Below the pieces are notes generated by a model. The model did no database searches, was not told where the DNA came from, and saw nothing but the letters and a program-made list of their open reading frames with translations. This document shows, in pieces, positions 10,304 to 64,000 of a stretch of 64,000 nt of DNA (within the stretch, counting starts at the first letter, position 1; the number at the start of each line of letters is the position of its first letter). The position numbers were made by a program, and so were the translations under genes. The DNA is from Thermoplasmata archaeon (GTDB lineage: Archaea; Thermoplasmatota; Thermoplasmata; Lutacidiplasmatales; UBA184), in contig JAKAVQ010000006.1 in assembly GCA_021817245.1 (NCBI GenBank), forward strand, positions 66,001 to 130,000, read 5' to 3'.

Positions 10304-10412
10304 GGGGCTGTGGGGTAGCTACGGGCGCGAGGAAGGCGCCTCCGTCCGCTCTACTGGTCCATCCTTCGGGCTTTGGGAGCCCGGGACCCCGATTCAAATT
10401 CGGGCAGCCCCA
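10304..10412 (+). tRNA. tRNA-Pro (anticodon TGG) with a ~34-nt intron in the D-loop
   Basis: Acceptor GGGGCTG/CAGCCCC with discriminator A; anticodon arm CGGGC-TTTGGGA-GCCCG (TGG, G37); T arm CCCGA-TTCAAAT-TCGGG; exons total 75 nt; inserted block TACGGGCGCGAGGAAGGCGCCTCCGTCCGCTCTA lies between AGC and CTGGTCC of the D-loop. Confidence 0.7.
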
Positions 10413-10582
10413 TCGCCGCATCGAGACCGGTCCGTCGGCGTGAGTTCCCCGGTACGGGTGGAGGCTCTTTGGAAGGATCGAATACGACGCCGTCCACGAA
10501 CGACCGTCGGCCCGGGGGAGACGCTGATCCTTCGGGCGATGCGCTCGAGGGAGCGCGGGCGTTCTACGCTCGCCGACCTCCC

Positions 10583-11398
10583 ATGCCGATCGAGGTCGAG
10601 CTCGCGACCAAGCGCCTCCAGTTGCAAGAGGGCGGCCTCCTGACGCGCATCCTCGACGAGGCGGTGGCGGCGACCGGCATGGAATTAGGGACCGTCCTGG
10701 ACTTCGGTGGACGCTCGGGCGCGAACCTCCAGCTCCTTGCGGACCGTCAGCGAATCCAGCGACGGGTCTGCTTCGACTTCACGCCCCCCGCGACCCCCCT
10801 ATCGGGTATCGAGTACGTCTCCGGAGCCTGGACGGAGCTCGCGGCGCACGTCCCGCCCCATTCCGTGGACCTCATCCTCGCGGTGGAGGTCATCGAGCAC
10901 GTCTATGATCCCGACGCCATGCTCGCCTTCTGCCGCCGCCTTTTGCGCCCGGGCGGCGTCCTCCTCCTGACAACACCGAATCTTTCCAGTCTCGTGAGCC
11001 GTCTCTCGCTGCTCCTCGGGTGGCAGCCGCTCGACACCGAGGTGAGCACCGTGACGCGATTCGGGTTCCCGGGAGCGACCCGGTGGAGCGTCGTCGGACA
11101 CATTCGGGTGTTTACGTTCCGGGCCCTGCTCGAGTTCCTGAGGTTCCACGACTGGAGGATCGAGCGGGCGTACACGGTCGCCCAAGGCCGGACCGCGCCG
11201 ACCGGCGGGCGGCTCTCCGGCGCGCTCGGATTCTACGCGCGGCTCGACCGTTTCGCGGGCCATTTCGGCCGTCGCTTGGCGTCGCACTCGATCGCGGTAG
11301 TCCGACCGAACGACCCGCCCCCGGTCCGGGAGGGGACCGGACCAGTCGTTTCCGCGGATCCGCGCGAGCGGACGCCCCCTTCGCCAACGGGAGAGTAG
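10583..11398 (+). CDS. Class I SAM-dependent methyltransferase
   Basis: LDFGGRSGAN motif I; HVYDPDAMLAFCRRLLRPGGVLLLTTPN; the upstream part of the ORF overlaps the tRNA, so the start is placed at the internal ATG at 10583. Confidence 0.6.
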   Translation: MPIEVELATKRLQLQEGGLLTRILDEAVAATGMELGTVLDFGGRSGANLQLLADRQRIQRRVCFDFTPPATPLSGIEYVSGAWTELAAHVPPHSVDLILAVEVIEHVYDPDAMLAFCRRLLRPGGVLLLTTPNLSSLVSRLSLLLGWQPLDTEVSTVTRFGFPGATRWSVVGHIRVFTFRALLEFLRFHDWRIERAYTVAQGRTAPTGGRLSGALGFYARLDRFAGHFGRRLASHSIAVVRPNDPPPVREGTGPVVSADPRERTPPSPTGE

Positions 11399-51383: not shown

Positions 51384-51492
51384 GCCCGTGTGGGGTAGCT
51401 ACGGGTCCGGGGCAATCCCCCCGGCTCGCTGCAATGGATTATCCTAGAGGCCTGCGGAGCCTCAGACCTGGGTTCGAATCCCAGCACGGGCG
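51384..51492 (+). tRNA. tRNA-Arg (anticodon GCG) with a ~35-nt intron in the D-loop; probable integration target
   Basis: Acceptor GCCCGTG/CACGGGC with discriminator G; anticodon arm GAGGC-CTGCGGA-GCCTC; T arm CTGGG-TTCGAAT-CCCAG; inserted block TACGGGTCCGGGGCAATCCCCCCGGCTCGCTGCAA sits at the same D-loop point as in tRNA-Pro. Confidence 0.7.
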
Positions 51493-51544
51493 TCTAACTC
51501 CTTCTTCGAATAGTTCATATCCCCGTTGAACCTACCCCTATCGA

Positions 51545-52840
51545 ATGGCGAAGCGGATTGACCACCGACCCCTGCTCATGGACAAGCAAATCCGCACATG
51601 GTACGACGAGAACTCGCTTCGGTCGAGGCTGACCGCAGAGGTTAACCTTCGGCAACTCGGCCTCTTCTGTCACGTCACAGAAACCGATCCTCGACGACTC
51701 GTCCAGCTCGGTCAGAGAGATCCCGAGCGGCTGCACGGAACCCTCGTTCGATACGCGAAGACGCTCCAAGGATCGGGCCGGCTTCCGAGTTACATCGCAA
51801 AGACGTTCGTGGGAATCAAGGGGTGGCTTCGTTTCAACCGCGTCGAGTTCGACCAGTTTCCCCGACTCCGAGTGGTCCAGGGCGAATCCATCCGAGAGGA
51901 GCGCGTCCCCACCCAGGAGGAGCTTCGAAGGATCCTCTCGACCTACTCGGCCAGGGGGCGCGTCGTTTCCCTGCTCATGGCGCACACCGGAGTCAGACCC
52001 GGCGTACTTGCAGCGATTGACGGTAGCGATGGCCTCCGGCTCTCCGATTTGAAAGACCTCGAGTTGGGTGCGGACCCCAAGTTCGGGCGTGTGCCCTTTC
52101 ACTTGGTCGTCCCGGCTCGGCTCTCCAAGACCTCGGTCGAGTACCACACCTTCGGGACGCCCGAACTCGCTGACGCGATCCTAGCGTACCTCGCCGAGCG
52201 GCGACAACGAGGGGAGGAACTCAGACCTTCGTCCCCGGTTGTTACCGTCGACGCGATGGGCGCCCGGACAAAGCTACGCGAGAAGTCGAAGACCGGTTTC
52301 ATCACGACGCCGATGATGATGCGCGCTCTCCGGGACGGCCTCAAGGCGATCCTCCCGAGCGCGCGGACCTACGTGTTCCGCGCCTACTGTTCGACCCAGA
52401 TGGTCTCGGCACGGATCGACCGAGACGTGCGCGAGGCGATCTTGGGTCACTCCCTCGGAGTGAGCGGCCGGTACAACCTCTCGAAGAAGCTACACCCTTC
52501 GGTGGTCGAAGAGCTCCGCCGGGAGTACGCAAGGGCCGTTCCTTACCTCGAGTCGGGCCGCCCCAAGGAGGATCGCGCGACTGTCCTCGAGGGAGTCCTC
52601 GCGGCGCTGCTCAAGGAGAAGGGGGTCAAGGACGACAAGATCAGCGAGGTCCTCGAGGGCAAGGTTGCGGGGGACGAACTCGAACGGATCCTGGGCTCAC
52701 GCAAGGCGGAGCCCATCCAAAGGGTGGTCCCGACGACGGGGGTTTCGGAGCTGCTCTTGCTAGGCTGGGAGTTCGTTTCCCCGCTCGGGACCGACCAGGC
52801 AGTTCTCCGGGCGCCCGCGAACGGCACGGCCCCCGTGTGA
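51545..52840 (+). CDS. int: Tyrosine-type site-specific integrase/recombinase
   Basis: 431 aa; catalytic-domain pattern LMAHTGVRPG (Arg), ILGHSLGVSGRY (His-x-x-Arg ... Tyr) with an N-terminal SAM-like domain. Confidence 0.8.
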   Translation: MAKRIDHRPLLMDKQIRTWYDENSLRSRLTAEVNLRQLGLFCHVTETDPRRLVQLGQRDPERLHGTLVRYAKTLQGSGRLPSYIAKTFVGIKGWLRFNRVEFDQFPRLRVVQGESIREERVPTQEELRRILSTYSARGRVVSLLMAHTGVRPGVLAAIDGSDGLRLSDLKDLELGADPKFGRVPFHLVVPARLSKTSVEYHTFGTPELADAILAYLAERRQRGEELRPSSPVVTVDAMGARTKLREKSKTGFITTPMMMRALRDGLKAILPSARTYVFRAYCSTQMVSARIDRDVREAILGHSLGVSGRYNLSKKLHPSVVEELRREYARAVPYLESGRPKEDRATVLEGVLAALLKEKGVKDDKISEVLEGKVAGDELERILGSRKAEPIQRVVPTTGVSELLLLGWEFVSPLGTDQAVLRAPANGTAPV

Positions 52841-52935
52841 GACCGCCACCCGGCTCCGGGGGACCCGCCATGAGCACCGACCTTCGGGCAGACGATTGTT
52901 ACCGAAACGGGTCAACGGTCCACCACTCAGTAGGG

Positions 52936-54225
52936 TTACTCGACTTTCCGTTCCCACCCCGCCCTCGAATAGATGCGCTGACGTTCGACCACTACCGTCC
53001 CGGTCGCTTGTCCAAGCCATCGGAGGTAGGAACGGACGCTCTTTGCCCTCCGTATGGGGGTCGAGCCTCGCAAGTGCGACGTGGCCTCGATGATGCGAGC
53101 TACTTCGGAGTCACTCACTCCCTCGGCCCCCCTCTCCCGCACGAGGCTGAACACGCGGTTGAGTAGAGGATTCTTGAGCAATCGTTCGGCGACAAGTAGT
53201 TCCCTTCTCTCTTGGGGAAGCCCCACGTACTGCCTTCCCTTGTCGGTGAGTGCGAACACTCCCTCTTCGAGCCGTACGAGCCCGAGTGCTTCCGCGGCTT
53301 CGCGGTAGTAACTCCCTTGACGGGTGGTGATCTTGTAGTGGTCCGCCCACCCCTTCGCCGTCGTGATTCCCGATTGGACGAGAAGGGGTAGCTCCACGAC
53401 CTTCCGCAAGTCATCGGCTTGGGGGACGATATCGACGCTCGGGTCGGGCGTGACGTCACTCAACCAATCTTGGGGAGCCTGCTCTTCGACGACCCGGTAT
53501 CGGGCCCTGCTTCGGCACCTGATACTCTCGTAGTCGTACGAGTCCGTCCACTCGTATTCCCACACCGAATAGGTCGAGACATCGGGTTCGGCAACGAAGA
53601 AGAACGAGCGGACGCTCTTGCCGGGCGACCACTCCCGGAACGTTCGGTAGGGAAAGTAGAGTTGCCGAACGAGAAAGTCGCGGCGGGTGTCGGCCTTTCC
53701 TTCGAAGAGCAGAACGTCACGCGGACCTTCGAACCCGGCGTCGAGTTCCATACCGGCTCCCCGAACGTCGAGATTCGGCGAGCCGTCGATTCGAAACGTG
53801 AACGTGCCGCTCCCCATCTTTCCCGAGATGGTTTGGTAGAGGGACGGGACGCCCGAGAAGTGGCTCAGGAGGCCCGTGTGGTAGGCGTGGAGGAGAAACC
53901 GGTTCTCCCCTTTACCATACGCAAGTGTCGTGAGCGAGATGGGCAGTCGGGCGCGGTAGGCTTGCGGCTCGCCGGGGTCTTCGAGTTCGTGGTAGCCCCT
54001 CCCACGAACTACGGCGTACCGAGATCGCGAGAGGGGGACCACGAACACGCCGTTATCGCGGAACAAGGTAGGGAGCTTGTCTTCGGAATCCATCGAAGCG
54101 AGCAGGCGGGGCTCGACACCGAGATGGATGTGGATGTCTTGGTTGGTGACGAAATTGACGGGGGCCGTGATGTCGAGATGGAGCTTGTCAATGAGTTCGG
54201 ACCATCGCTCGTGAAGTACGACCAT
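52936..54225 (-). CDS. Putative type II restriction endonuclease with additional C-terminal winged-helix domain
   Basis: 429 aa; directly downstream of, and co-oriented with, a Dam methylase; PD-(D/E)xK-like GMELD...LFEGK; C-terminal about 140 aa looks wHTH. Confidence 0.45.
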   Translation of the reverse strand: MVVLHERWSELIDKLHLDITAPVNFVTNQDIHIHLGVEPRLLASMDSEDKLPTLFRDNGVFVVPLSRSRYAVVRGRGYHELEDPGEPQAYRARLPISLTTLAYGKGENRFLLHAYHTGLLSHFSGVPSLYQTISGKMGSGTFTFRIDGSPNLDVRGAGMELDAGFEGPRDVLLFEGKADTRRDFLVRQLYFPYRTFREWSPGKSVRSFFFVAEPDVSTYSVWEYEWTDSYDYESIRCRSRARYRVVEEQAPQDWLSDVTPDPSVDIVPQADDLRKVVELPLLVQSGITTAKGWADHYKITTRQGSYYREAAEALGLVRLEEGVFALTDKGRQYVGLPQERRELLVAERLLKNPLLNRVFSLVRERGAEGVSDSEVARIIEATSHLRGSTPIRRAKSVRSYLRWLGQATGTVVVERQRIYSRAGWERKVE

Positions 54226-54229
54226 CGAC

Positions 54230-55060
54230 CTACCCGTAATTCATCACAAGCAACTCGTCAATCGCGCCGCGGGCCGTCCCCTTGGAGTTGATGGCTCGCT
54301 TTGCCTTCAACGCCTCAATCCGGAACCCGTCGTAGAGCGTCTTGACGAGCGGCGTCGCGGAGTTGGAGAGCATCACGAGGACCCCCCGCTTGTCGAGCCG
54401 GCGATAGGTTTCGGCAAGCTTCCTTTGCTCTCGGTTTCCGAAGTCCTCTTTGGTGTAGCTCGTGAACTTGGACGTTTCGCTCAACGGGTGGTAGGGGGGG
54501 TCCAAGTAAACGAAGTCCCCGATCTTGACCCTCGCACACACCTTCTGGTAGTCGGCGAGGACAATGTTCTTACCGCGGAGAAGGGCACTCGTCGCGGGCA
54601 AGTTCTCCCGGTCGTAGAGAGTTGGGTTCTTGTAGCCGCCCCACGGGACGTTGAAGTTGCCGTCGGAGTTTACCCGATACAAGCCGTTGAAGCACGTCTT
54701 GTTCAGGAAGATGGTTCGTGCGGCTCGCTCGACCGACGAGAGCGTAGATGGGTCCGTGGCTCGAACCTTGTAGAAGTAGGCTTCCTCGGTTCGTTGCGGG
54801 AGGTGTTCGTCGAGCGCCCGCATTAGGCCGCCGGGGTCATCGCGAACGATTGTGAACGTGTTGACGAGTTCGGGGTTCGAGTCGGACAACATGGCCTTCT
54901 CGGGCTGGAGATGGAAGAAGACGGCCCCTCCCCCGAGGAACGGCTCGAAGTACGTTCGAAAGTCCTTCGGGAAGAACGGCTCCATCTGGGGAATAAGTTG
55001 GGCCTTTCCCCCCGCCCACTTGAGAAAGGGGCGCGCCGGGAGGAGGGTCTGGGCCAGCAC
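54230..55060 (-). CDS. dam: DNA adenine methyltransferase (Dam/D12 class N6-adenine MTase)
   Basis: 276 aa; motif I FLKWAGGK...FEPFLGGGAVFF and catalytic DPPY (VYLDPPYHPLS). Confidence 0.85.
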   Translation of the reverse strand: MLAQTLLPARPFLKWAGGKAQLIPQMEPFFPKDFRTYFEPFLGGGAVFFHLQPEKAMLSDSNPELVNTFTIVRDDPGGLMRALDEHLPQRTEEAYFYKVRATDPSTLSSVERAARTIFLNKTCFNGLYRVNSDGNFNVPWGGYKNPTLYDRENLPATSALLRGKNIVLADYQKVCARVKIGDFVYLDPPYHPLSETSKFTSYTKEDFGNREQRKLAETYRRLDKRGVLVMLSNSATPLVKTLYDGFRIEALKAKRAINSKGTARGAIDELLVMNYG

Positions 55061-55410
55061 GCGGGGCCACCAGCAACGGACTACTTACGCGGAACGCTCA
55101 CCGCCACGTCGAACCCGTAGCCGGCGAGGAATCGGGCGGATCTACCCCCGAAAGAGCGCCGTGGAGCCTCTTTGACGGCCCTGTGAACGAAGGATCTGGG
55201 GGTATCGACGGGCGGCCCGTGGGAACAGGAGAGAGAAACGCTCGGGCCCCGTTTTCGGTTCCGACGCGAACTGGGACATGGGCGAGGGCACGATAAGCCT
55301 GCGAGGGTCGGGGGTGGCGGGGCGCAGTAAGGGGGGATGTGCGTAGGCATCACCCACTCTTGTGGATGCTCCCCGCAGGAAGCCATGTGTGTACGCGCGT
55401 TCGAACCGCG

Positions 55411-55522
55411 GCACCGGCCGGTGCCCGGGAAGCGTAGGCCGGTGTCGTCCGGTGCCGTCGGGGACCGCGCCCCGTGCCGCTTGGTGCCGCAACGGTGCCG
55501 AGCCGGCGTCGGTCCGGTGCCG
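55411..55522. repeat. Iteron-like cluster: at least 7 copies (4 perfect) of GGTGCCG / CGGTGCCG within about 110 bp
   Basis: Read directly: GGTGCCC 55420, GGTGTCG 55441, GGTGCCG 55451, GTGCCG 55474, GGTGCCG 55483, 55494, 55516; inverted copy GCACCGG at 55411. Confidence 0.5.
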
Positions 55523-55634
55523 TCGACAAACCCGGGCGATGTGACGCTCTCCGACACCAAGCCGGTTGCAGATCGCGAAGAGACGGGGGGCGGCACTGGG
55601 AGATGCGACGTTACCCGTTACTGTGGAGGCGGCC

Positions 55635-56134
55635 TGATGTGGCGCGCTCCAACGCGCGCGCGTGAGGACGGAACGGACCGGACCACGCGCTTCCTGCTTT
55701 CCAGCAGGCGGCGTGATGTGGCGCGCTCTCTCACGGGCGCGCGAGGGGGGGAGGATCCGGGCCGGACGAGGACGCGCCGGACGAGTGGGACGAGCCGGAC
55801 GAGTGCTCGCCCCGGACGACTCCCGTTGGCCGGCAGCTGGTCGCCTACCTGGACCGGGAGCAGGCGCTTTCGGCGGCAAAGGATCGCGCCGGGGCGGAGC
55901 GACGCAAGCCTCCCGTCTGCGAGGACTGCGGGGCACGATTCAGCCGGAGGGATGCGATGGAGCGCCACCAATGGAGCGTTCACGGGAATGGAGCGTGACG
56001 CCCGTGGTGGTGGTGGGCGGGGCGCCCCGCCATATATATATCCCGTGCGCGCGCGAGGACGGACCGGACCACGCGCTTCCTGCTTCCCAGGAGGCGACGT
56101 GAAGTGGCGCGCGCTCTCACGCGCGCGTGAGGGG
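55635..56134. repeat. Two ~75-bp imperfect direct repeats (55674-55750 and 56061-56134, about 90% identical) plus a partial third copy (55635-55667)
   Basis: GGACCGGACCACGCGCTTCCTGCTT(T/C)CCAG(C/G)AGGCG(G/A)CGTGA(T/A)GTGGCGCGC..CTCTCACG(G/C)GCGCG(C/T)GAGGGG; contains CCTGCT..AGCAGG and GCGCGC..GCGCGC inverted repeats. Confidence 0.6.
56031..56041. promoter_or_regulatory. (TA)5 alternating tract, strong TATA-box candidate just upstream of repeat copy 2
   Basis: CATATATATAT, the only pure AT tract in about 2 kb; flanked by CGCGCGCG. Confidence 0.35.
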
Positions 56135-56424
56135 AGCGAGGTCTTCCCCCGGACGAGGACGAGCCGAGGGACAACCTCGTGACACGTTACCAGTAGGAGC
56201 GGGCCGGATCGAGACACTCCGGGCACGGGTCGCCAAGTCGCATCGAGCCGCTGGGCGGTCCCGGGTCCCCGGTCCTGACGCGCGAGAACTACACGCGCGA
56301 GAGGGGGCGCGGGCTCGTCCGGGCGGGCGGGACGAGGGCGGGTCGCTCGCCCGCACACACAAACGGACACGGCCCGTTCCGGAACGTTGTCGGTGGAGGA
56401 AGAGAGCGGACGAGGACGAGTCGG

Positions 56425-56913
56425 TCATGCGCTCGCCCCTCCCGACGGTGCGCACCGCTTGAGATGGCGGCTCAGATTGTCCCGCCGAACCGAGAGGCCG
56501 CACCAGGGGCAGGGAGCGCGGTAGGCACCAGACCAGGCCGAGGGACGGTCAGGGGAGGTGGGCGTGGAGTCCTTCGCTCTCTTGGCCTCTCCTCGAGGCG
56601 GAAGGGGAGAGGGTGGCAGTGGTGGTGGGCGAATAGGCGCGGTACGTACCGTATCCGTTGCGGGGACGAGCGAGGGTCGGACGAGTCGGGGCCACCCCCC
56701 TCCCCGCTCACACATATGGGACACGGCCCGTTCCGTAACGTTTCCGGACCGGAGGGAATAGGCGGTCGCTCCGCTGCGCTCACAACCGGTGCCCGGTATA
56801 GGGCAGGGTCGTCCTCTCCGCGCGCACCGCGTGCACCTTGTGCGCAGACGTCTCCATGCCGTCCGCTCCCACGGAGAGTCCACTTCGTGCGTGCCTCTGG
56901 CGTGTGCGGTCAT
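56425..56913 (-). CDS. Candidate small zinc-finger protein (zinc ribbon plus C-terminal C2HC finger)
   Basis: C-terminal CPWCGLSVRRDNLSRHLKRC (C-x2-C-x12-H-x3-C) and upstream CTRC...CPIPGTGC; start assigned to an internal Met; speculative. Confidence 0.3.
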   Translation of the reverse strand: MTAHARGTHEVDSPWERTAWRRLRTRCTRCARRGRPCPIPGTGCERSGATAYSLRSGNVTERAVSHMCERGGGWPRLVRPSLVPATDTVRTAPIRPPPLPPSPLPPRGEAKRAKDSTPTSPDRPSAWSGAYRAPCPWCGLSVRRDNLSRHLKRCAPSGGASA

Positions 56914-57172
56914 GGGAACAGCCGCAGGCCGAGTGCAACCGGCGGTCGCACGCAGTCCCCGGCGGCGACGACAAGCGATAGACCCACGCGAGATGATGGT
57001 GTGAGCAAAGTCCCCGCCCGAGAACCGTCGCCCGAGTCTCGGTGTGACCCAGGGGGTACGACCGAAGGGCTGGGTCCGGGCCCGGGCGGGATCTCGCGCG
57101 ATCGGTGCCAAGGACCCGGGCCGAAGGAAGGATTTATCATTCAGCGACATATCCCATCCCTCCCGAGGGGAT

Positions 57173-57436
57173 ATGTCCGAGAAGAGTCGCCATCTGGTAG
57201 AATCCCGACTTGCGCGCATTGAAGGTCACATACACGCCGTCCACCGCATGGCCCATGAAGGAAGGAGTTACCCCGAGATCGTCCACCAGATCTCCGCTAT
57301 TCGATCTTCCTTGGATGCCGCGGTTCAAGCAATCGTTGACGATCTGGTTCGGAGCTGTATCCACGACGCGTCCGGCAACGAATCCATTGCCTCGACCGTG
57401 GAGGAACTTCAGGCCGTCGTCGCCAGCGCTCTCTAG
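57173..57436 (+). CDS. CsoR/RcnR/FrmR-family metal-sensing transcriptional repressor
   Basis: 87 aa; LARIEGHIHAVHRMAHEGRSYPEIVHQISAIRSSLDAAVQAIVDDLVRSCIHD matches the DUF156 helical-bundle pattern; His/Cys ligand positions present. Confidence 0.75.
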   Translation: MSEKSRHLVESRLARIEGHIHAVHRMAHEGRSYPEIVHQISAIRSSLDAAVQAIVDDLVRSCIHDASGNESIASTVEELQAVVASAL

Positions 57437-57468
57437 CGAGTACCCTCCCCCCTCCTTCCCGGGTACAA

Positions 57469-58374
57469 ATGCCGATCCTTCAGCACGGAGAGGGAGAAGC
57501 CGAAGCCCGCATACTGGTGGGGCTCCGCCTCGCTGTCCAGCTCAGCGTGGTGATTCTTGTGATGGAGGCCCTCGGTGCCTTCTTCTCTCGCAGTCTTTCG
57601 CTGACCGTAGACGCCGTTCACGACCTTCCCGACATCTTCGCGTTCCTGCTGTCCTGGGGGGCCTTGAGGTCGACGTCGAAGGGGCCTTCCGAAGGGTTCA
57701 CTTTCGGCTCGCACCGCTTGGAAACCTTCGCGGGCGTTCTCAACGCGGTGGTCGTTCTGATCGTGGGCGCCGCCTTCGGGGCGGAAGCGTTCTCTGCACT
57801 CTGGTCAAGAAGCACCTTCGCCGGCCCCGTGAACGCCGTCTGGCTTCTCGCCGCGGCGGTGCCCACCCTGGTGCTTAGGCTAATCGGTGTCGGCGTTCTG
57901 AACCGGCTCCCGGGAAAGGTCCGGGACCTGAATCTCGCGAGCGTTCTCCTCCACATGGCGAGTGATATCGCTATCACGGGGGCGCTTCTCGTCGTAAGCG
58001 CCGTCCTCTTCATCCAGCCTGCTTGGGGGGTGGCCGATCCCATTGCCGCCCTCGTCATCGCCGGAGTCCTTGTCTACGAGTCGATTCCACTGCTGCGAGA
58101 AGGGTGGAGAATCCTTACCGAACGTGCTCCGAGAGGTATCTCAGTGGAGGCGATTGAGCGAGAGGCCCTCAGCGTCCCGGGTGTTTCGGGACTGCACGAT
58201 CTCCACGTCTGGTCAGTTTGCAGTTCCCTCGTCTGCCTCACCGCGCATGTAGGAGTGAAGGAAATGTCGCTTCGAGACTGCATGTCGGTCGTCGCAGAGC
58301 TGAGGAGCAAAATGGAGCGCGAGTTCGGCATTGTCCACGCCACGTTTGAGATAGAGGGACAGTCGAGCGCGTGA
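57469..58374 (+). CDS. Cation diffusion facilitator (CDF) family metal exporter
   Basis: 301 aa; six TM helices with HD/HD-like metal site motifs (AVHDLPD; HMASDIAI) and C-terminal cytoplasmic domain. Confidence 0.85.
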   Translation: MPILQHGEGEAEARILVGLRLAVQLSVVILVMEALGAFFSRSLSLTVDAVHDLPDIFAFLLSWGALRSTSKGPSEGFTFGSHRLETFAGVLNAVVVLIVGAAFGAEAFSALWSRSTFAGPVNAVWLLAAAVPTLVLRLIGVGVLNRLPGKVRDLNLASVLLHMASDIAITGALLVVSAVLFIQPAWGVADPIAALVIAGVLVYESIPLLREGWRILTERAPRGISVEAIEREALSVPGVSGLHDLHVWSVCSSLVCLTAHVGVKEMSLRDCMSVVAELRSKMEREFGIVHATFEIEGQSSA

Positions 58375-58620
58375 GGAGGTCGTTCCTCCGGGGGCCATTT
58401 GGGGGTTGGCTCTTGGTTCGAAACGGATCGAGCCCGATGGGACCGAACCCTCACATCGTTCACCGACTTCGAGATCCTGCGGATGCTGAACCGTACGCTC
58501 CGGAGCGTCGGCGGCATGCCCTGTAGGGCAGTCGAGTGCGGATGAACTGACGGCCGGCGCGGTCCCTAGCCGAGTTCGATGGCGACAGATCTTGTCCGTC
58601 CGGTTTCGTATCAACTGGGG

Positions 58621-59241
58621 TCAACCGAGCTTCCTCAAGATGAACCGCCGCGAGAACGGCTTGGCTTTGCCTGGGATCACCTCCCACGAACGTCGCGAAA
58701 GCAACTCGCGGAATCGCCGCTCCGATGTCCGCAGGGCCCTACCGCGGCTGGTCAAGCCCGGACCAATCGTCACGAAGGTCACCAAGGCGCGGCCTCCCGG
58801 TTTGAGGATTCGCCACATCTCCTCCATCGCTCGCTCCTTGTCGACCAGGCAACAAAGGAGCCCGTTCGAAAGGATGTAATCCACACTGCCGGAGGGGATG
58901 GACGGCACCGAAGCTGCGGAGCAATGGATGAACTCCACCCGGTCCGTCACCTCCAAGGTGGTGGCGACCTGCCGCGCCAACGACAGGGCGTCGTCGTCGA
59001 GATCGACGGCGTAGATCCGTCCCGCTACCCCGATTCTCCGACTTAGCTCTGCGAGGAAAAACCCGCCTCCGGCACCGAGGTCCGCAACCACGTCCCCCGG
59101 CCTGGGCGGGCAGAAGTCAATCAGGCGGCCCGGCTTCTTGAACCACCGTCGAAGCGGGTTGTGGAAGAACCACGTCGGCAGGGTTCGGTCCCGAACACCC
59201 AAAGTCGACACGGTTCCGGGCGACCTTCCGAAGAGAGGCAC
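58621..59241 (-). CDS. Class I SAM-dependent methyltransferase (type 11)
   Basis: VVADLGAGGGFF motif I; ILKPGGRALV post-II. Confidence 0.6.
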   Translation of the reverse strand: MPLFGRSPGTVSTLGVRDRTLPTWFFHNPLRRWFKKPGRLIDFCPPRPGDVVADLGAGGGFFLAELSRRIGVAGRIYAVDLDDDALSLARQVATTLEVTDRVEFIHCSAASVPSIPSGSVDYILSNGLLCCLVDKERAMEEMWRILKPGGRALVTFVTIGPGLTSRGRALRTSERRFRELLSRRSWEVIPGKAKPFSRRFILRKLG

Positions 59242-59255
59242 GCGACGTTGGGAGG

Positions 59256-60116
59256 TTACGGCATGTTCATCGGGCCAGGTCCACCGCAGCAGTCCTCGAG
59301 GTTGATGACCGTGACCACCTGTTGCGCATCGTATCCATACTGCACGATCAAGGCCTTGGCCAAGCCCTCATGAGCATAGTAGGCCCAGCACTGGCAGCAG
59401 CACCAGCCGTTGTCGTTCGTGTTGCTAGCCGCCGTGTTGAAGATGGCTTGCTGGCTCGAGGTGAGCCCATCGCCGGCATGCGCCACGTCGGCTTTCGCCG
59501 TGTGCGCGACCACGTTGTAGGGGTCGGGCGGGATGAGGGAGATCGAAGCGTAGCTCGTGAGCCCCGGAATCTGGGACGAATAGTCCGGGGTGTAGTCCAT
59601 CGGACTGCAACACGAGCCTTGGATGTAGGTGGTGTCCGCCAATCCGTTGATCCAGTTGACGTACGCCGTTTCATCGCCGAGACTGACTCCCGTCCACACA
59701 CACGCGTCGGTGGACTGTTGGCTGAGGTAGTTGAATTCAACCTGGGTCCCTGCCGCTCCCGGACCCGGGTTGGTTCCCGGTTTCGGTGGGCCTCCGAAGA
59801 GAACGCCCGACGTGAAGATGAGGTAGAGCACCAGGATCAGCACGGTGACGGCGGAACCGCCGATAATGATTGAGCGCAATCGCTTCCGGCCGCCTCGGCC
59901 GGCTCGGTCTCCCCCGCGATCGGGACCTCCCGGAGCTTGGGGTCCCGAACGGCTGCTCCGGGAGCGACGCTGGAAATAGAGCGCCCGCAGGGCGCGGCCG
60001 GCGTCAGCGCCCGGAGGGGGGTGGAAGCCGGCCTTCCGATCCCTGGCCACCTTGTCCCAACTGACCCCGTCGGCGCGAAGCTGTTCGACACGCTCCCAGT
60101 CGGTCATGCGTCGCAA
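59256..60116 (-). CDS. Membrane-anchored Cys-rich extracellular protein (hypothetical)
   Basis: Single TM (AVTVLILVLYLIFTSGVLF) then a domain with 10 Cys (CC, CCCQC, CC). Confidence 0.4.
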   Translation of the reverse strand: MRRMTDWERVEQLRADGVSWDKVARDRKAGFHPPPGADAGRALRALYFQRRSRSSRSGPQAPGGPDRGGDRAGRGGRKRLRSIIIGGSAVTVLILVLYLIFTSGVLFGGPPKPGTNPGPGAAGTQVEFNYLSQQSTDACVWTGVSLGDETAYVNWINGLADTTYIQGSCCSPMDYTPDYSSQIPGLTSYASISLIPPDPYNVVAHTAKADVAHAGDGLTSSQQAIFNTAASNTNDNGWCCCQCWAYYAHEGLAKALIVQYGYDAQQVVTVINLEDCCGGPGPMNMP

Positions 60117-60318
60117 CTACCCGGACAACGGATATATAGATTGACCGCGCGCGGGCAACCGACGGGAACGGGCTGCTGGGCCACCCGGTGTCGACGGCCG
60201 GATTCTCCCTCCGGACGGTCGGGTTCTTGAACGGCCGCATCAACAAAATGGCAACGCAGGGCCCGACGAGCGTCGCCCCCGCGGTTCGTACCCCCCTGAC
60301 AAGTAGCGGGATGAGTGG

Positions 60319-60963
60319 TTGCACTCCCGAGGGAGACGTCCTACCATGACCGGCGTCGCGGAGCAAGGTGAGGGATGGATCCTCCGCCATCGTGGAGCGG
60401 TTCGTCGGTCGGCCCGTATGGTCTTCGGATTCGTCTGGGGAATCGATGCCGCGCTCGCGTTCTTCCCGCAGACTCCGTTTTGGTTCTCGGAGAGCGTTCT
60501 CGCCGCGAGCATCGGCCAGCCTTCCTGGCTCTCCGGCTGGTATGCCTTCTGGGTGGTCCAAGCCCAGCAGTACGCAGCACTGGACGTGGGGGTCGTCACC
60601 TTTCTCGAACTCGCGTTGTGCGTTTCGCTCATCGTGGGACTTTTGAGAAAGACCGCCTACCTCGGGGGGATAGGCCTGAGCTTGTTCATTTGGGCGGTTC
60701 CTAATGGGTTCGGAGGCCCGTACGACGTAGGCACTTTTGACGTGGGAGTGGGCGTCATTTACGCGATCGCGTTCCTGTTCCTGATGGTGCTTGACGCCGA
60801 CCCATCCGCCAAGGTAGGGACCGTCGACGGGTGGATCGAGCGCCGTTGGCCGGGTTGGGCCCGCTGGGCGGAGGTCTCTACTTCGGTATTCCGCGCTCAG
60901 GAGAGGGTCTCTCGCAGACCTCATGAGGTCCCAGCAACTCCTCCGGTCCGGCAGGACCCATGA
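60319..60963 (+). CDS. Integral membrane protein, paralog A of a three-member family (VPxGFGGPY motif; DoxX-like?)
   Basis: FIWAVPNGFGGPYDVGTFDVGVGVIYAIAFLFLM; stop overlaps the cupredoxin start (ATGA). Confidence 0.5.
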   Translation: MHSRGRRPTMTGVAEQGEGWILRHRGAVRRSARMVFGFVWGIDAALAFFPQTPFWFSESVLAASIGQPSWLSGWYAFWVVQAQQYAALDVGVVTFLELALCVSLIVGLLRKTAYLGGIGLSLFIWAVPNGFGGPYDVGTFDVGVGVIYAIAFLFLMVLDADPSAKVGTVDGWIERRWPGWARWAEVSTSVFRAQERVSRRPHEVPATPPVRQDP

Positions 60964-61682
60964 CAGCCGGCAAGGAGCATGCCGCAATCGACTCGCCGGC
61001 GACCGGCCAGCACCCTCCGGGTCGTCCTCTCGGGCCCGTCGTCGTCGTTCTGGTGGTGGCGATCCTCGTCGGTCTCGCGGGGACTGCCTTCGCCTTTATG
61101 ATCGTCGAAGCGCCGTCACTGGCTTCGGCAGGATGCCCCTCGGTCGCTCAGTACGACCCTACGGTCTCGACGATCAACAATCAGACGTTCACCGAAGATA
61201 ACTCCCTGCCCCCGGGGGTCAGCGAAACTCCGGCGATGAATTCGATTACGCTCACGGCGACCGGGGCGACGTTGCTCATCGAGGGGGCGCCCGGGTGGTA
61301 TCCTCACTCCGGGAACTACTTCCTGAGCTACGGACTCGTGAACCCGCAACTCTCCGTGCCTTCGGGAGAGCCGGTGCGGTTCGAATTCATCAACATGGAC
61401 AACGAGTCCCACGACTTCGCGCTGACCACCCAGCCGCCGCCGTATCCCTACATGCCGATGATGAGCGGGGGAGGGATGATGGGAATGGGTGGCGGGAGCG
61501 GCTGCTGGCTTTCCGTGGGGTCGATGATGGTCAATGGAATAACGGCACCGAGCGCAAACCCGGTCTACCAGACCACCGCTGCCACGCTCAGCTTCGCGGG
61601 CCCGGGGACGTTCTGGTATCTCTGTCTGATGCCGGGCCACGCTCAATCGGGGATGTACGGTCAGCTGACCGTCCGAGGCTGA
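60960..61682 (+). CDS. Membrane-anchored type-1 copper protein (sulfocyanin/plastocyanin-like cupredoxin)
   Basis: N-terminal TM; Cu ligands in FINMDNESHDFAL (His) and WYLCLMPGHAQSGMYG (Cys-x2-His-x4-Met), the canonical cupredoxin C-terminal loop. Confidence 0.7.
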   Translation: MTAGKEHAAIDSPATGQHPPGRPLGPVVVVLVVAILVGLAGTAFAFMIVEAPSLASAGCPSVAQYDPTVSTINNQTFTEDNSLPPGVSETPAMNSITLTATGATLLIEGAPGWYPHSGNYFLSYGLVNPQLSVPSGEPVRFEFINMDNESHDFALTTQPPPYPYMPMMSGGGMMGMGGGSGCWLSVGSMMVNGITAPSANPVYQTTAATLSFAGPGTFWYLCLMPGHAQSGMYGQLTVRG

Positions 61683-62325
61683 CGCCGGATTCCCGCGGTG
61701 GTGCGGCGGGCTGCGTCGGGGCCCGGGCTTGAACCAGCCGTTGCCACGCCGGCCATCGCCGTCCCACGGTCGTGTCGAGCGTGAACCGGGGCGGTCCCGA
61801 AATCGAGTCGAGATGGAGTAAGGCGAGGAAGACGACAGCGTACAGGATTCCGGTGCCCATGTCGGTGCTCCCGGGACCATAGGGTCCTCCGAAACCCTGG
61901 GGTACTGTCCAGAGGAAGATGCTGAGGACCAGACCGAGCAGGTACACGGGCCTGCGCAGCAAGCCTGTGAACAGGCAGAACCCGATTGCGAGTTCCACCA
62001 ACCCGAAACCGTACCACCAGAAGACCGGGTTCCCTGCGACGATGCCCGCCCAAGCGGAGAACCAGCCCATGAGCCATGGCGGTTGACCGTCTTCGACCAT
62101 GACCACCGTCCAGTACGAAAGCTGCGAGTAGGTCCCGGGAAGGAATCGGAGCAGGCCATCCGCCATCCAGACACTTCCGAAGAGGATCCGGAGGGCCGTC
62201 GTCCGAAGCGACGGGGAGAAGATCTCTCGGAACCGCCCGCCCCACGCGGCGGCCACGGAGGCGAAGACCGTCGCGCCGAGGAGTAGCAGGACGGCCACCT
62301 CGAGGGCCAGAGCGATCTCGCTCAT
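61588..62325 (-). CDS. Integral membrane protein, paralog B
   Basis: LWTVPQGFGGPYGPGSTDMGTGILYAVVFLALL. Confidence 0.5.
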   Translation of the reverse strand: MSEIALALEVAVLLLLGATVFASVAAAWGGRFREIFSPSLRTTALRILFGSVWMADGLLRFLPGTYSQLSYWTVVMVEDGQPPWLMGWFSAWAGIVAGNPVFWWYGFGLVELAIGFCLFTGLLRRPVYLLGLVLSIFLWTVPQGFGGPYGPGSTDMGTGILYAVVFLALLHLDSISGPPRFTLDTTVGRRWPAWQRLVQARAPTQPAAPPRESGVSLGRSADRTSPIERGPASDRDTRTSPGPRS

Positions 62326-63323
62326 TCGTAGATCAACCCCATGCTGTTGTCGGAGGGCGTGGAAACCACGGCTCGCTGGGAGGCTGGGGCTTTGTGTTCC
62401 GCCCCACGAAGGCGACGACTTCGCGCGGGCACGGAGGGGCGATCATCGGTCCGACGGACGCTGCGAAGCCAGTGCCACCGTCTCGGACGAAGGGAGGTCA
62501 AGGAGGGAGGGGCGGAGGAAGGGCTCCCCACATTGGGCGGAAGACCGGCACCTCCCGGGTCGTGGGAATCGTCCGGAGTCAGCCGACGAAAGGACGCGCC
62601 ACCGATGATTCGCCATGCCGGCCATCGGCGCTCGAGGGCGGGATCGCCCGCCAGTCGAGCCGGGCCCGATACCGAATCCATCCGGAGGAGGATCAGAAAG
62701 AGCACGGCGTACAGCAGGCCCGCGCCGATGTCGGTGTTGGGAGCGGCGTAGGGACCGCCGAATCCGTTCGGGACCGCCCAGAGCATGAGGCTGAAGAGGA
62801 ATCCCACGACGTACGCCAGTCGACGGGCGACCCCGAGGATGAGGCAAGCGGCAAGGAACGCCGTCAGTACCCCGGTGCCATACCACCAGAACCCGGGATC
62901 TGCGGCGATCACGCCGGCCCAATACGAGAACCACCCGGAGAGCGCGGGCTGTTCTTGGCCGGCTCCGACGACGAGCAGGTACGCCAATTGCGTGGGAGCT
63001 CCGGGGAGGAACTGGAGAGTCGCATCCACTGCCAGGATTCCCCCCAGCAAGAGGCGGAGGCAGGCAACGCGACTTCCCGGAGACCGCAGACGAAACGTCT
63101 CCGGAAACGCGAACAGCGCCCCGAGAACGATCGCGACGAGAGCCATGGTCATTGCCGCAAACTCGGCCGGTACGAACAGCTCCGACATTCCGGAAAGCAA
63201 CTGCCGGTAGACGTAGGTCGGCCGGAGACAAGAGGCCTGCTCCCCCGCGGAGAAGGTCTCCCCGTCGCTCCGAGCAACACCTAAAGTTAAGTGTCGGGTG
63301 CCGATGACAAGACCTTCCACCAT
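62322..63323 (-). CDS. Integral membrane protein, paralog C (start may be the internal Met near 63188)
   Basis: LWAVPNGFGGPYAAPNTDIGAGLLYAVLFLILL; stop overlaps the paralog B start (ATGA). Confidence 0.5.
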   Translation of the reverse strand: MVEGLVIGTRHLTLGVARSDGETFSAGEQASCLRPTYVYRQLLSGMSELFVPAEFAAMTMALVAIVLGALFAFPETFRLRSPGSRVACLRLLLGGILAVDATLQFLPGAPTQLAYLLVVGAGQEQPALSGWFSYWAGVIAADPGFWWYGTGVLTAFLAACLILGVARRLAYVVGFLFSLMLWAVPNGFGGPYAAPNTDIGAGLLYAVLFLILLRMDSVSGPARLAGDPALERRWPAWRIIGGASFRRLTPDDSHDPGGAGLPPNVGSPSSAPPSLTSLRPRRWHWLRSVRRTDDRPSVPARSRRLRGAEHKAPASQRAVVSTPSDNSMGLIYE

Positions 63324-63810
63324 GCAACCGGTCTCCGTCGACGCGATCCACGTCCCGACCCGCGGATCTCCGGTAGGCGCGACGATCCGTCACCCGGTCC
63401 TCGTGGCCCTGGTTTCGCTGGAACTCGGTTTGTTGGCCGTCCAGTTCGCGCTCGGAATGTTCGTCAATCTGTATGTGACGTTCCCGTCGCCCGTCTTCGG
63501 GATGTACGGCTTGATGCAACTGATGTTCCAGCCGGGAATGGGGACCGTAATGGCTCACATGATGACCGGCATGGTCTTGGGCGCCCTCACCCTGCTCACG
63601 TTCGCGGCCGCCGCCCTCTCCCGAAACACGCTCCTGATCGCCGCGACCGGGGGGACGTTCGCCGCTGTAGTGGCAGCGGGAATCAGCGGCATGGAGTTCT
63701 TGTTCTCCGGGCAGAATAACGCCTACTCGTACGGGATGTCACTGGGGTTCCTCTTGGCGTTTACGATGGCGTTTCTCAGTCTTCTCGTCGCATCGGGCCG
63801 GACGAGATAG
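63298..63810 (+). CDS. Met-rich integral membrane protein (possible Cu(I)-handling)
   Basis: 170 aa; four TM helices; MYGLMQLMFQPGMGTVMAHMMTGM Met-rich motif. Confidence 0.4.
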   Translation: MPMTRPSTMQPVSVDAIHVPTRGSPVGATIRHPVLVALVSLELGLLAVQFALGMFVNLYVTFPSPVFGMYGLMQLMFQPGMGTVMAHMMTGMVLGALTLLTFAAAALSRNTLLIAATGGTFAAVVAAGISGMEFLFSGQNNAYSYGMSLGFLLAFTMAFLSLLVASGRTR

Positions 63811-64000
63811 AGTACGACCCATCCCTCTCGGCGACCAACACGAGGCGGGGAACCTGCCGCCCACGCGCACCACGAAACCATGACTTCTGGGGTGGGTTTC
63901 GGGCCGGAGAACTCTCCGAACCCCCGTGCGGAAACGGCACGCGGAGCCGACTCGAGCAGCGTACGGCAGAGGCGCCCCCTCCTGACGGAGGCGAGTTCTC

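Follow-up and report, generated by a model that had tools for sequence, protein, structure and literature searches.

A horizontally acquired and probably mosaic island at tRNA-Arg(GCG), anchored by a Pfam-invisible tyrosine integrase, in an uncultured Thermoplasmata archaeon

An integrase gene beside a tRNA gene is a standard signature of a genomic island. In archaea, classical or pNOB8-type integrases are recognized by the signature R...YxxR...Y and by a gene that stays intact next to its attachment (att) site (PMC8371274). Here we describe such an arrangement in a stretch of 64,000 nucleotides from a Thermoplasmata archaeon (GenBank assembly GCA_021817245.1, contig JAKAVQ010000006.1, positions 66,001 to 130,000; hereafter the window, with positions counted from its first letter). 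An initial annotation, made from the letters alone, read positions 51384 to 64000 as an integrative metal-resistance island with a restriction-modification (R-M) system, a repeat-rich control region and a copper/metal module. Our analysis shows that the island is real and horizontally acquired, and that its anchor at tRNA-Arg(GCG) is a classical integrase that looks functional. Insertion at the tRNA is upheld, but the view of 51.4-64 kb as one element is poorly borne out: the cassette is modular, the backbone is decayed and no right attachment site (attR) lies in the window. The account that we favour, with a probability of about 0.55, is a mosaic island built in several steps at tRNA-Arg(GCG), with an integrase-proximal backbone that is decaying.

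The composition of the window changes at the tRNA. GC content in 1-kb windows is 0.69-0.75 before 51 kb and 0.59-0.67 after it, except at 55-57 kb (0.70). All 12 island genes have a GC content of 0.576-0.664, at least 2.4 standard deviations below the 0.712 ± 0.020 of 35 host open reading frames (ORFs), and their GC content at third codon positions (GC3) is 0.65-0.82 compared with 0.847 ± 0.039 in the host set. The drop in GC from the tRNA onward, proposed in the initial annotation, is thus evident in both measures. The window as a whole has about 71% GC, which fits the roughly 69% given in the description of the Lutacidiplasmatales (PMC9287336). The flanking proteins, like all homologues, belong to uncultured Thermoplasmata from soils and peat. 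Upstream of the island lie housekeeping genes, including those for NiFe hydrogenase maturation, EamA and MFS proteins, a HAD hydrolase and GatE/GatD.

Comparison with relatives, which had been proposed as a check on the island, places its left boundary precisely. Scanning GTDB representatives for the tRNA 3' end yielded 118 Thermoplasmata loci with GatE-GatD-tRNA-Arg synteny. Nucleotide homology with the window ends at 51492-51496, the tRNA 3' end, in about 110 species, and alignments continue through the integrase only in L003, L046 and L068 (related loci are given L numbers). The presence of the integrase is polymorphic: 13 species out of about 119 have a member of its family 54-141 nt past this tRNA, and elsewhere the downstream DNA is unrelated and not conserved. 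Clustering across these ~119 species revealed no conserved downstream neighbour of tRNA-Arg; the best candidate, a beta-propeller protein found in 9 species, is not in the window. Neither the R-M pair nor the copper cassette of the window was found at tRNA-Arg in any of the other species, where only isolated homologues of CsoR (L094) and of the CDF exporter (L022) were seen.

Within this set, the identity of the integrase is decoupled from that of its hosts. The integrases of L003, L123 and L127 are 83-87% identical to that of the window, with adjacent GatD and GatE proteins only 63-70% identical, whereas in the equally distant hosts L102, L019 and L098 the integrases are just 41-49% identical. 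This decoupling indicates horizontal transfer between genera. Together with the junction and the shift in composition, insertion at tRNA-Arg by a tyrosine integrase is well supported.

The target gene, tRNA-Arg(GCG), occupies 51384-51492 on the forward strand and carries an intron-like insertion of ~35 nt in its D-loop. Owing to this insertion, the ARAGORN and Rfam calls are short, covering 51424-51492 only. ARAGORN calls a complete tRNA-Arg from about 51383 once 31-43 nt are excised, and the acceptor stem GCCCGTG/CACGGGC places the start at 51384. Among 113 related species, 109 have a gene of 105-110 nt with the insertion, and the hairpin within the insert varies while keeping its pairing. 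A second tRNA with an intron-like D-loop insertion, tRNA-Pro(TGG), lies at 10304-10413 and is missed by ARAGORN; the insertions in the two tRNAs measure ~33-39 nt. A 17-nt match at 10309, considered as an att site, was rejected as part of this tRNA-Pro.

Sequence on the element side of the junction (51493-51544, forward strand) begins with TCTAACTCCTTCTTCGAATAG... and includes the conserved motif TTCGAATA. The pattern TC[T/C]AAC.CCTT.TTCGAATA directly after the tRNA is common to integrase-bearing loci, and the junction is conserved in L123 and L127. At tRNA-Lys, L125 and L126 carry the TTCGAATA motif too, and the junction sequence is missing from L022 and L094, the integrase-free loci that were inspected. 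Since the motif is shared by integrase loci that include an element at tRNA-Lys, the junction sequence belongs to the element rather than to the host. Integration into tRNA 3' ends with a core of ~18-21 nt is the behaviour of the family, and the same is inferred for the window. The predicted core is about the last 20 nt of tRNA-Arg(GCG), GTTCGAATCCCAGCACGGGCG, which would represent attL, and the predicted attP junction would consist of the right end, the core and TCTAACTCCTTC....

The integrase gene (51545-52840, forward strand) starts 53 bp past the tRNA 3' end, as annotated, and is intact, encoding 431 aa of a Thermoplasmata family. Its catalytic residues R151, K195, Y276, R279, H302 and Y310 are invariant in an alignment of 30 homologues. 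An AlphaFold2 model (mean confidence score, pLDDT, 82.8) matches the folds of XerA (4a8e, 5e-7), IntI (2a3v), Cre, lambda Int and SSV1 Int at probability 1.00, and the PHROG_1 integrase profile matches at 7.8e-10. On the basis of these residues and the predicted fold, the protein is a tyrosine recombinase. Pfam does not reveal this: PF00589 gives 14.8 bits against a cut-off of 27.1 (E=0.024), below its gathering score, and reaches E<0.01 in just one of 30 family members. A PDB sequence search with the family profile likewise returned no recombinase, and fold comparison alone succeeded.

The window integrase is encoded by a full-length gene, collinear with those of its homologues, and the att repeats of relatives are found in the tRNA and not within the integrase gene. 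An SSV-type, suicidal integrase was therefore rejected, as the gene is not split and the att site of relatives is external to it. The protein is further characterized by a conserved C-terminal alpha/beta domain (residues ~390-425; window 52700-52840) that is not present in the matched classical recombinase structures. In this domain G407 is invariant and W408 near-invariant, within the motif GWEFV..LG.DQAVLR.P.

The family comprises 494 clusters (50% identity, E<=1e-30), mostly full length at about 430-460 aa, and has so far been seen in Thermoplasmata metagenomes only; no relative was found in IMG/VR (2.9 million contigs), INPHARED or PLSDB. Of 72 family loci, 57 have a tRNA or T-loop motif within the 160 nt that precede the integrase (36 tRNAs called by ARAGORN and 21 T-loops). 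The targets include tRNA-Arg(CCT), Lys(CTT), Arg(GCG), Pro, Cys, Ala, Val and Met. Two members of the family are complete elements. L155 is a 7.96-kb element at tRNA-Arg(CCT), bounded by 19-nt repeats of the tRNA 3' end and carrying a resolvase. L191 (64-9935) spans 9.85 kb at tRNA-Val(CAC) between att repeats of 18 nt. Its genes, among them a type IIG enzyme resembling Eco57I/MmeI and two DarT genes of which one is fused to a Macro domain, include none for replication, and the element is a compact archaeal defence shuttle.

In L126 (9831-10000; GCA_021827545.1, JAKAVH010000149.1), an intact tRNA-Lys with its native flank is followed by a gap of Ns, element DNA, a 21-nt copy of the tRNA 3' end and the integrase. 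This attP-like junction suggests that empty sites and free or tandem forms of the element coexist. The contigs L123 and L124, from two samples, are 99.7% identical through GatE, GatD, tRNA-Arg and an identical integrase (P0018), and are unrelated from 174 bp past the integrase stop (position 11384), which points to a cargo-exchange hotspot or to strain-level replacement. In L134 (8682-10954; GCA_027365105.1), the integrase, 80% identical to that of the window, is encoded by a pseudogene that contains an internal duplication and an in-frame stop, and an insertion sequence (IS; DDE_Tnp_1) separates it from the tRNA.

Directly after the integrase, the reverse strand encodes a putative type II restriction endonuclease (52936-54225; Pfam DUF6996, DUF6997 and DUF7226; PADLOC REase_II 1.7e-30) and a Dam-family N6-adenine DNA methyltransferase (54230-55060; PF02086 2.9e-62, TIGR00571 4.5e-87, PADLOC MTase_II 7.5e-100). 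These profiles agree with the Dam methylase and endonuclease named at the outset. The two genes are 4 bp apart on the same strand, an arrangement that would suit a type II R-M pair. Despite the Dam-family assignment, GATC is not avoided in the host DNA (window 1-51384), with an observed/expected ratio of 1.06. In the same host DNA, CTAG is strongly under-represented (observed/expected 0.30).

A GC-rich (0.695), G-skewed repeat region follows at 55061-57172, with 12 direct and 11 inverted repeat families. The initial annotation had described about 2 kb of mostly non-coding repeats here; the repeats are confirmed, but the region is not simply non-coding, as it holds the remnant of a C2H2 zinc-finger gene. 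Its repeat units take the form (A/G)TG(A/T)(T/A)GTGGCGCGC...CACGCGCGCG(C/T)GAGG, and a conserved stretch reads GTGGTGGTGGTGG...CCATATATAT...CGTGCGCGCGCGA. Units of the CACGCGCGCGYGAG type and their flanks are homologous to DNA directly after the integrase in L134/L135 (integrase 80% identical) and in L153 (44%). The post-integrase regions of these relatives are likewise GC-rich (0.69-0.72) inside elements of 0.61-0.65. Given this homology, the R-M pair appears to lie between the integrase and the backbone that normally adjoins it in the closest relatives. The backbone gene that comes next in L134 and L153 is missing from the window. No Rfam family matches in the repeat region, and tblastx of the region without a low-complexity filter returned compositional noise only.

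The zinc-finger ORF (55717-55998, forward strand, frame 1) has no start codon and is likely a pseudogene or frameshifted. Over 57 residues it shares 81% amino-acid identity with an ORF of ~97 aa, with a GTG start, located just past the L153 integrase. The many synonymous differences between the two show that it was once a real gene. The GTG start in L153 aligns with GGA in the window, and an ATG at 55716 is one frame off the ORF across a G7 run (55745-55751), where G6 would join them. An identical G7 run is present in the independent assembly L002. The ORF could be a pseudogene, could contain a slippage site or could use a non-canonical start. It is followed by a conserved promoter-like unit (56005-56063, forward strand), GTGGTGGTGGTGG...CCATATATATAT...CGTGCGCGCGCGAGG, which is near-identical in L153 and L134, and by a truncated second copy of the zinc-finger 5' region at 56092-56180. 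Judged from these sequence features, the repeat region may best be regarded as the duplicated, decaying control or early region of the element rather than as an origin or an RNA gene.

The CDF class of transporters exports divalent cations, and DmeR/DmeF and RcnR/RcnA are metal efflux pairs. In the island, a CsoR/RcnR-family regulator (57173-57436, forward strand; PF02583 5e-18) precedes a predicted CDF divalent-cation exporter (57469-58374, forward strand; PF01545 2e-31, 109.7 bits; PF16916 ZT_dimer 47.2 bits). The exporter exceeds the cut-off of TIGR01297 (2.1e-48, 165 bits vs 82), and its ZitB- and DmeF-like matches fall under their cut-offs. Both families had been recognized in the initial annotation, but a canonical CsoR metal site is not retained. 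The nearest solved relatives of the regulator are 6AHX and the nickel sensor InrS. On alignment to InrS (5fmn), 6ahx and CsoR (4adz), the first ligand Cys is replaced by Tyr and the His by Leu, and the last Cys is kept. With the Cys and His ligands replaced, the regulator is not a canonical Cu(I) CsoR, and the canonical metal site is probably not where it senses its effector. By analogy with described pairs, the arrangement suggests efflux of divalent cations of the Zn/Co/Ni type rather than of copper. Homologues of CsoR (65% identical) and CDF (56%) lie 2.4-4.5 kb downstream of tRNA-Arg(GCG) in the integrase-free loci L094 and L022, in L094 at host-like GC, which hints at recurrent capture at the hotspot or at an older linkage.

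The remaining cargo forms a second block. On the reverse strand it begins with an ArsM/UbiE-like S-adenosylmethionine (SAM)-dependent methyltransferase (58621-59241; Pfam Methyltransf_31/11/25; ArsM subfamily 3.3e-22, below cut-off) and a Cys-rich single-pass membrane protein (59256-60116). The latter has an outer domain with CC, CCC and CC motifs and an N-terminal cytoplasmic helix-turn-helix-like segment, is 87% identical in L136, and has no match in Pfam, NCBIfam or PHROGs. A Met-rich membrane protein (63304-63810, forward strand; 87.5% identical in L136) closes the block within the window. These three proteins are present where they had been annotated.

Between them, a cupredoxin is flanked by three paralogous DoxX-like membrane proteins, as initially proposed: a (60319-60963, forward strand), b (61588-62325, reverse strand; Pfam DoxX E=0.018) and c (62322-63185, reverse strand), for which the start is uncertain as the ORF extends to 63323. 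Their paralogy was measured through the L136 counterparts and amounts to 33-47% identity overall, with 33-39% for a against b and c (E 1e-25 to 1e-32) and 47% between b and c. The cupredoxin (60960-61682, forward strand) had been called sulfocyanin-like. Its membership of the cupredoxins stands, but its affinity is closest to rusticyanin and not to sulfocyanin. The best PDB matches are rusticyanins (1gy1, 4.6e-11), and the His, Cys, His and Met ligands align, as the H of ESHDF and the C, H and M of CLMPGHAQSGM. The rusticyanin model TIGR03095 matches at 2.2e-23 with 83.1 bits against a cut-off of 146.7, the sulfocyanin model TIGR03094 gives 18.8 against 168.4, and Pfam SoxE (PF06525) at 27.7 bits exceeds its cut-off of 21. 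Further features of the protein are a membrane anchor at its N terminus and a Met/Gly-rich insertion, ~30 residues long. Blue copper proteins have been proposed as respiratory carriers in the Lutacidiplasmatales (PMC9287336). The cupredoxin cassette could be a module for copper handling or electron transfer, and the label of a metal-resistance island is plausible but unproven.

This cassette recurs in relatives with other flanks. The segment 58696-63801, from within the methyltransferase gene to the Met-rich protein, recurs in L136 at 86% nucleotide identity, where the left flank differs: an IS and an unrelated membrane protein take the place of the CsoR-CDF pair. It also recurs in L131 at 76%, collinear from 60478 to the window end (base 63998), so that the cassette continues past 64000. 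In L131 (3693-7077) it goes on with two small proteins, a Rieske [2Fe-2S] protein, a second cupredoxin-like protein and a DoxX fragment. It ends there at the 3' end of a complete tRNA-Val(CAC), where GC rises to host level; no integrase is present, and PurA belongs to the L131 flank. L131 suggests an electron-transfer module in another tRNA-linked island. The cargo of the window is shared with none of 62 other family loci. Integrases of the family are most often accompanied by a resolvase (22 of 63 loci) and by P-loop primase/helicase-like proteins, neither of which is present in the window.

The right boundary of the island was sought from 52841 to 64000 with a 23-mer (up to 3 mismatches), with blastn-short of the tRNA and spacer and with a Hamming scan of the last 20 nt (up to 6 mismatches), and nothing above background was found. 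A 16/23 match at 55396-55418 is within background expectation, and near 57 kb the best match, with 6 mismatches in 20, is also background. Independent assemblies of the same strain (4 single-nucleotide polymorphisms in 18.8 kb) break inside the island, at 60398 in the 50-kb contig L002 and at 61393-63334. Exact-protein look-ups for DoxX-like protein b, the Met-rich protein and the cupredoxin (P0121) returned a 1.9-kb contig or none.

A course of events can be proposed on this basis. A classical, non-suicidal tyrosine integrase would have recombined its att core with the chromosomal tRNA, and recombination would have regenerated the tRNA and put the integrase gene directly beside it. The island now consists of an intact integrase, a type II Dam-family R-M pair with a possible role in defence or addiction, and a decayed GC-rich control region that keeps duplicated promoter/operator-like units and the start-less zinc-finger gene. 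To these are added two separable cargo blocks. One is the regulator and CDF exporter, which may be most like divalent-metal efflux of the DmeR/DmeF style; the other is the conserved cassette from the methyltransferase to the Met-rich protein, which extends past the window end. The blocks were probably assembled by several events at the hotspot, and the whole is probably no longer autonomous.

Some observations weigh against this mosaic account. An attR just past 64000 could make the whole block one bounded, possibly excisable element, and the same-tRNA relatives L123 and L128 are also without attR within 10 kb, so that large intact elements may be normal in the sub-lineage. The integrase and R-M genes are intact, which argues against advanced decay. 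In addition, the presence of CsoR and CDF homologues at tRNA-Arg(GCG) in the integrase-free L094 and L022 means that the pair could have long adjoined the tRNA instead of having arrived as cargo. The first of these points amounts to an alternative in its own right, in which a single intact integrative element of more than 12.5 kb moves all its genes together and has its attR beyond the window. We regard this as possible, although less so than stepwise assembly. It is consistent with low GC unbroken to the window end, with the intact integrase and with the large size that the same-tRNA relatives make plausible. The L131 cassette ends ~3.3 kb past the equivalent of the window end, at a GC step, and L191 demonstrates that a complete family element can hold defence cargo only, with no replication gene. 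Such an element is at odds with the lack of attR in 12.5 kb and with the decayed backbone next to the integrase. In relatives, the cassette and the CsoR-CDF pair are found apart from each other, the cassette of L131 abuts a complete tRNA-Val without an integrase, and independent assemblies break within the block.

Stepwise assembly at the tRNA also has to be set against narrower and broader views of the locus. The mobile remnant may comprise only 5.7 kb, from 51493 to about 57170, with 57-64 kb forming an independent island, for example one that entered via a downstream tRNA-Val, or an abutting flexible region. Complete family elements of 8-10 kb with defence cargo would fit this, as would the L131 cassette bordering the 3' end of tRNA-Val(CAC), the tRNA targeted by the family in L191. 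CsoR and CDF genes near tRNA-Arg without an integrase (L094 and L022) and the different left flank of the cassette in L136 point the same way. We nevertheless consider it unlikely, as no attR-like sequence lies near 57 kb and the genes of 57-64 kb have a GC content as low as or below that of the integrase and R-M genes. That the block is native and conserved, with a domesticated recombinase and a GC drop caused by gene content, is disfavoured and highly improbable. Variable DNA follows tRNA-Arg in all relatives and close strains offer no clean empty site, as such a block would allow. However, downstream content differs in nearly every species, GC and GC3 are shifted in all 12 genes whatever their function, complete bounded family elements exist, and the integrase is 83-87% identical across hosts with adjacent genes 63-70% identical. 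A provirus is suggested by little more than the position of the integrase next to a tRNA and has scarcely any credibility. The initial annotation had already argued against a provirus from the lack of capsid or replication genes, and this conclusion is sustained: no capsid, replication or resolvase match was obtained (Pfam on all listed genes, PHROGs on a subset), no terminase or other virion gene was seen among the proteins scanned, and the viral databases IMG/VR and INPHARED hold no relative of the integrase family.

The island itself is ordinary; what makes it notable is an integrase family that Pfam misses and a cupredoxin cassette that is mobile. It records the horizontal movement of genes over genus-level distances in uncultured, high-GC soil Thermoplasmata of Lutacidiplasmatales type. 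The main integrase family of these organisms escapes PF00589-based annotation, so that surveys of archaeal mobile elements and recombinase classifications built on that domain probably miss it. The cassette of a rusticyanin-like cupredoxin and DoxX-like proteins moves from one context to another and could matter for copper handling or for iron or electron-transfer metabolism in acid soils. More tentatively, the integrase may represent an unclassified lineage of classical archaeal integrases that delivers small, rapidly exchangeable cassettes (R-M, DarT, resolvase and metal genes) to tRNA 3' ends in soil Thermoplasmata. A hotspot directly 3' of the integrase would be the place of cargo exchange, the GC-rich promoter/operator module and the C2H2 zinc-finger gene would serve as a control switch, and the window would capture an element under domestication. 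We consider this broader scheme possible but doubtful as it stands.

Despite sharing several features with described systems, the locus departs from each of them. With the pNOB8-type integrases, the window integrase shares the signature R151, Y276xxR279 and Y310, an intact gene and a tRNA target. Searches of PDB, plasmid and phage sequences gave no sequence-level match, an extra C-terminal domain is present here, and the window is without conjugation or replication genes. The Pyrococcus yayanosii island PYG1 (21.4 kb; PMC5126054) and the Islander islands (PMC4383910) likewise combine an integrase beside an intact tRNA with foreign composition and adaptive or defensive cargo. In those islands a displaced tRNA fragment marks the far end, whereas none was found in the window and its island is mosaic and partly decayed. 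L191 and L155 share the integrase family and the tRNA 3'-end position with the window, and R-M cargo is found in L191 (type IIG with DarT/Macro). Both are bounded by 18-19 nt repeats within 8-10 kb, in contrast to the window element.

The cargo shows the same combination of likeness and divergence. As in DmeR/DmeF and RcnR/RcnA, a CsoR/RcnR-family gene stands directly upstream of a cation exporter, but the window regulator lacks two ligand residues (Cys and His), and none of the equivalog cut-offs is reached. The cupredoxin differs from rusticyanin in its membrane anchor, in its Met/Gly-rich insertion and in its location among DoxX-like paralogues rather than beside complex IV. It nonetheless shares the four type-1 ligands and the Cys-x4-His-x4-Met spacing with the rusticyanin of Acidithiobacillus ferrooxidans and with the blue copper proteins of Thermoplasmatota (PMC9287336).

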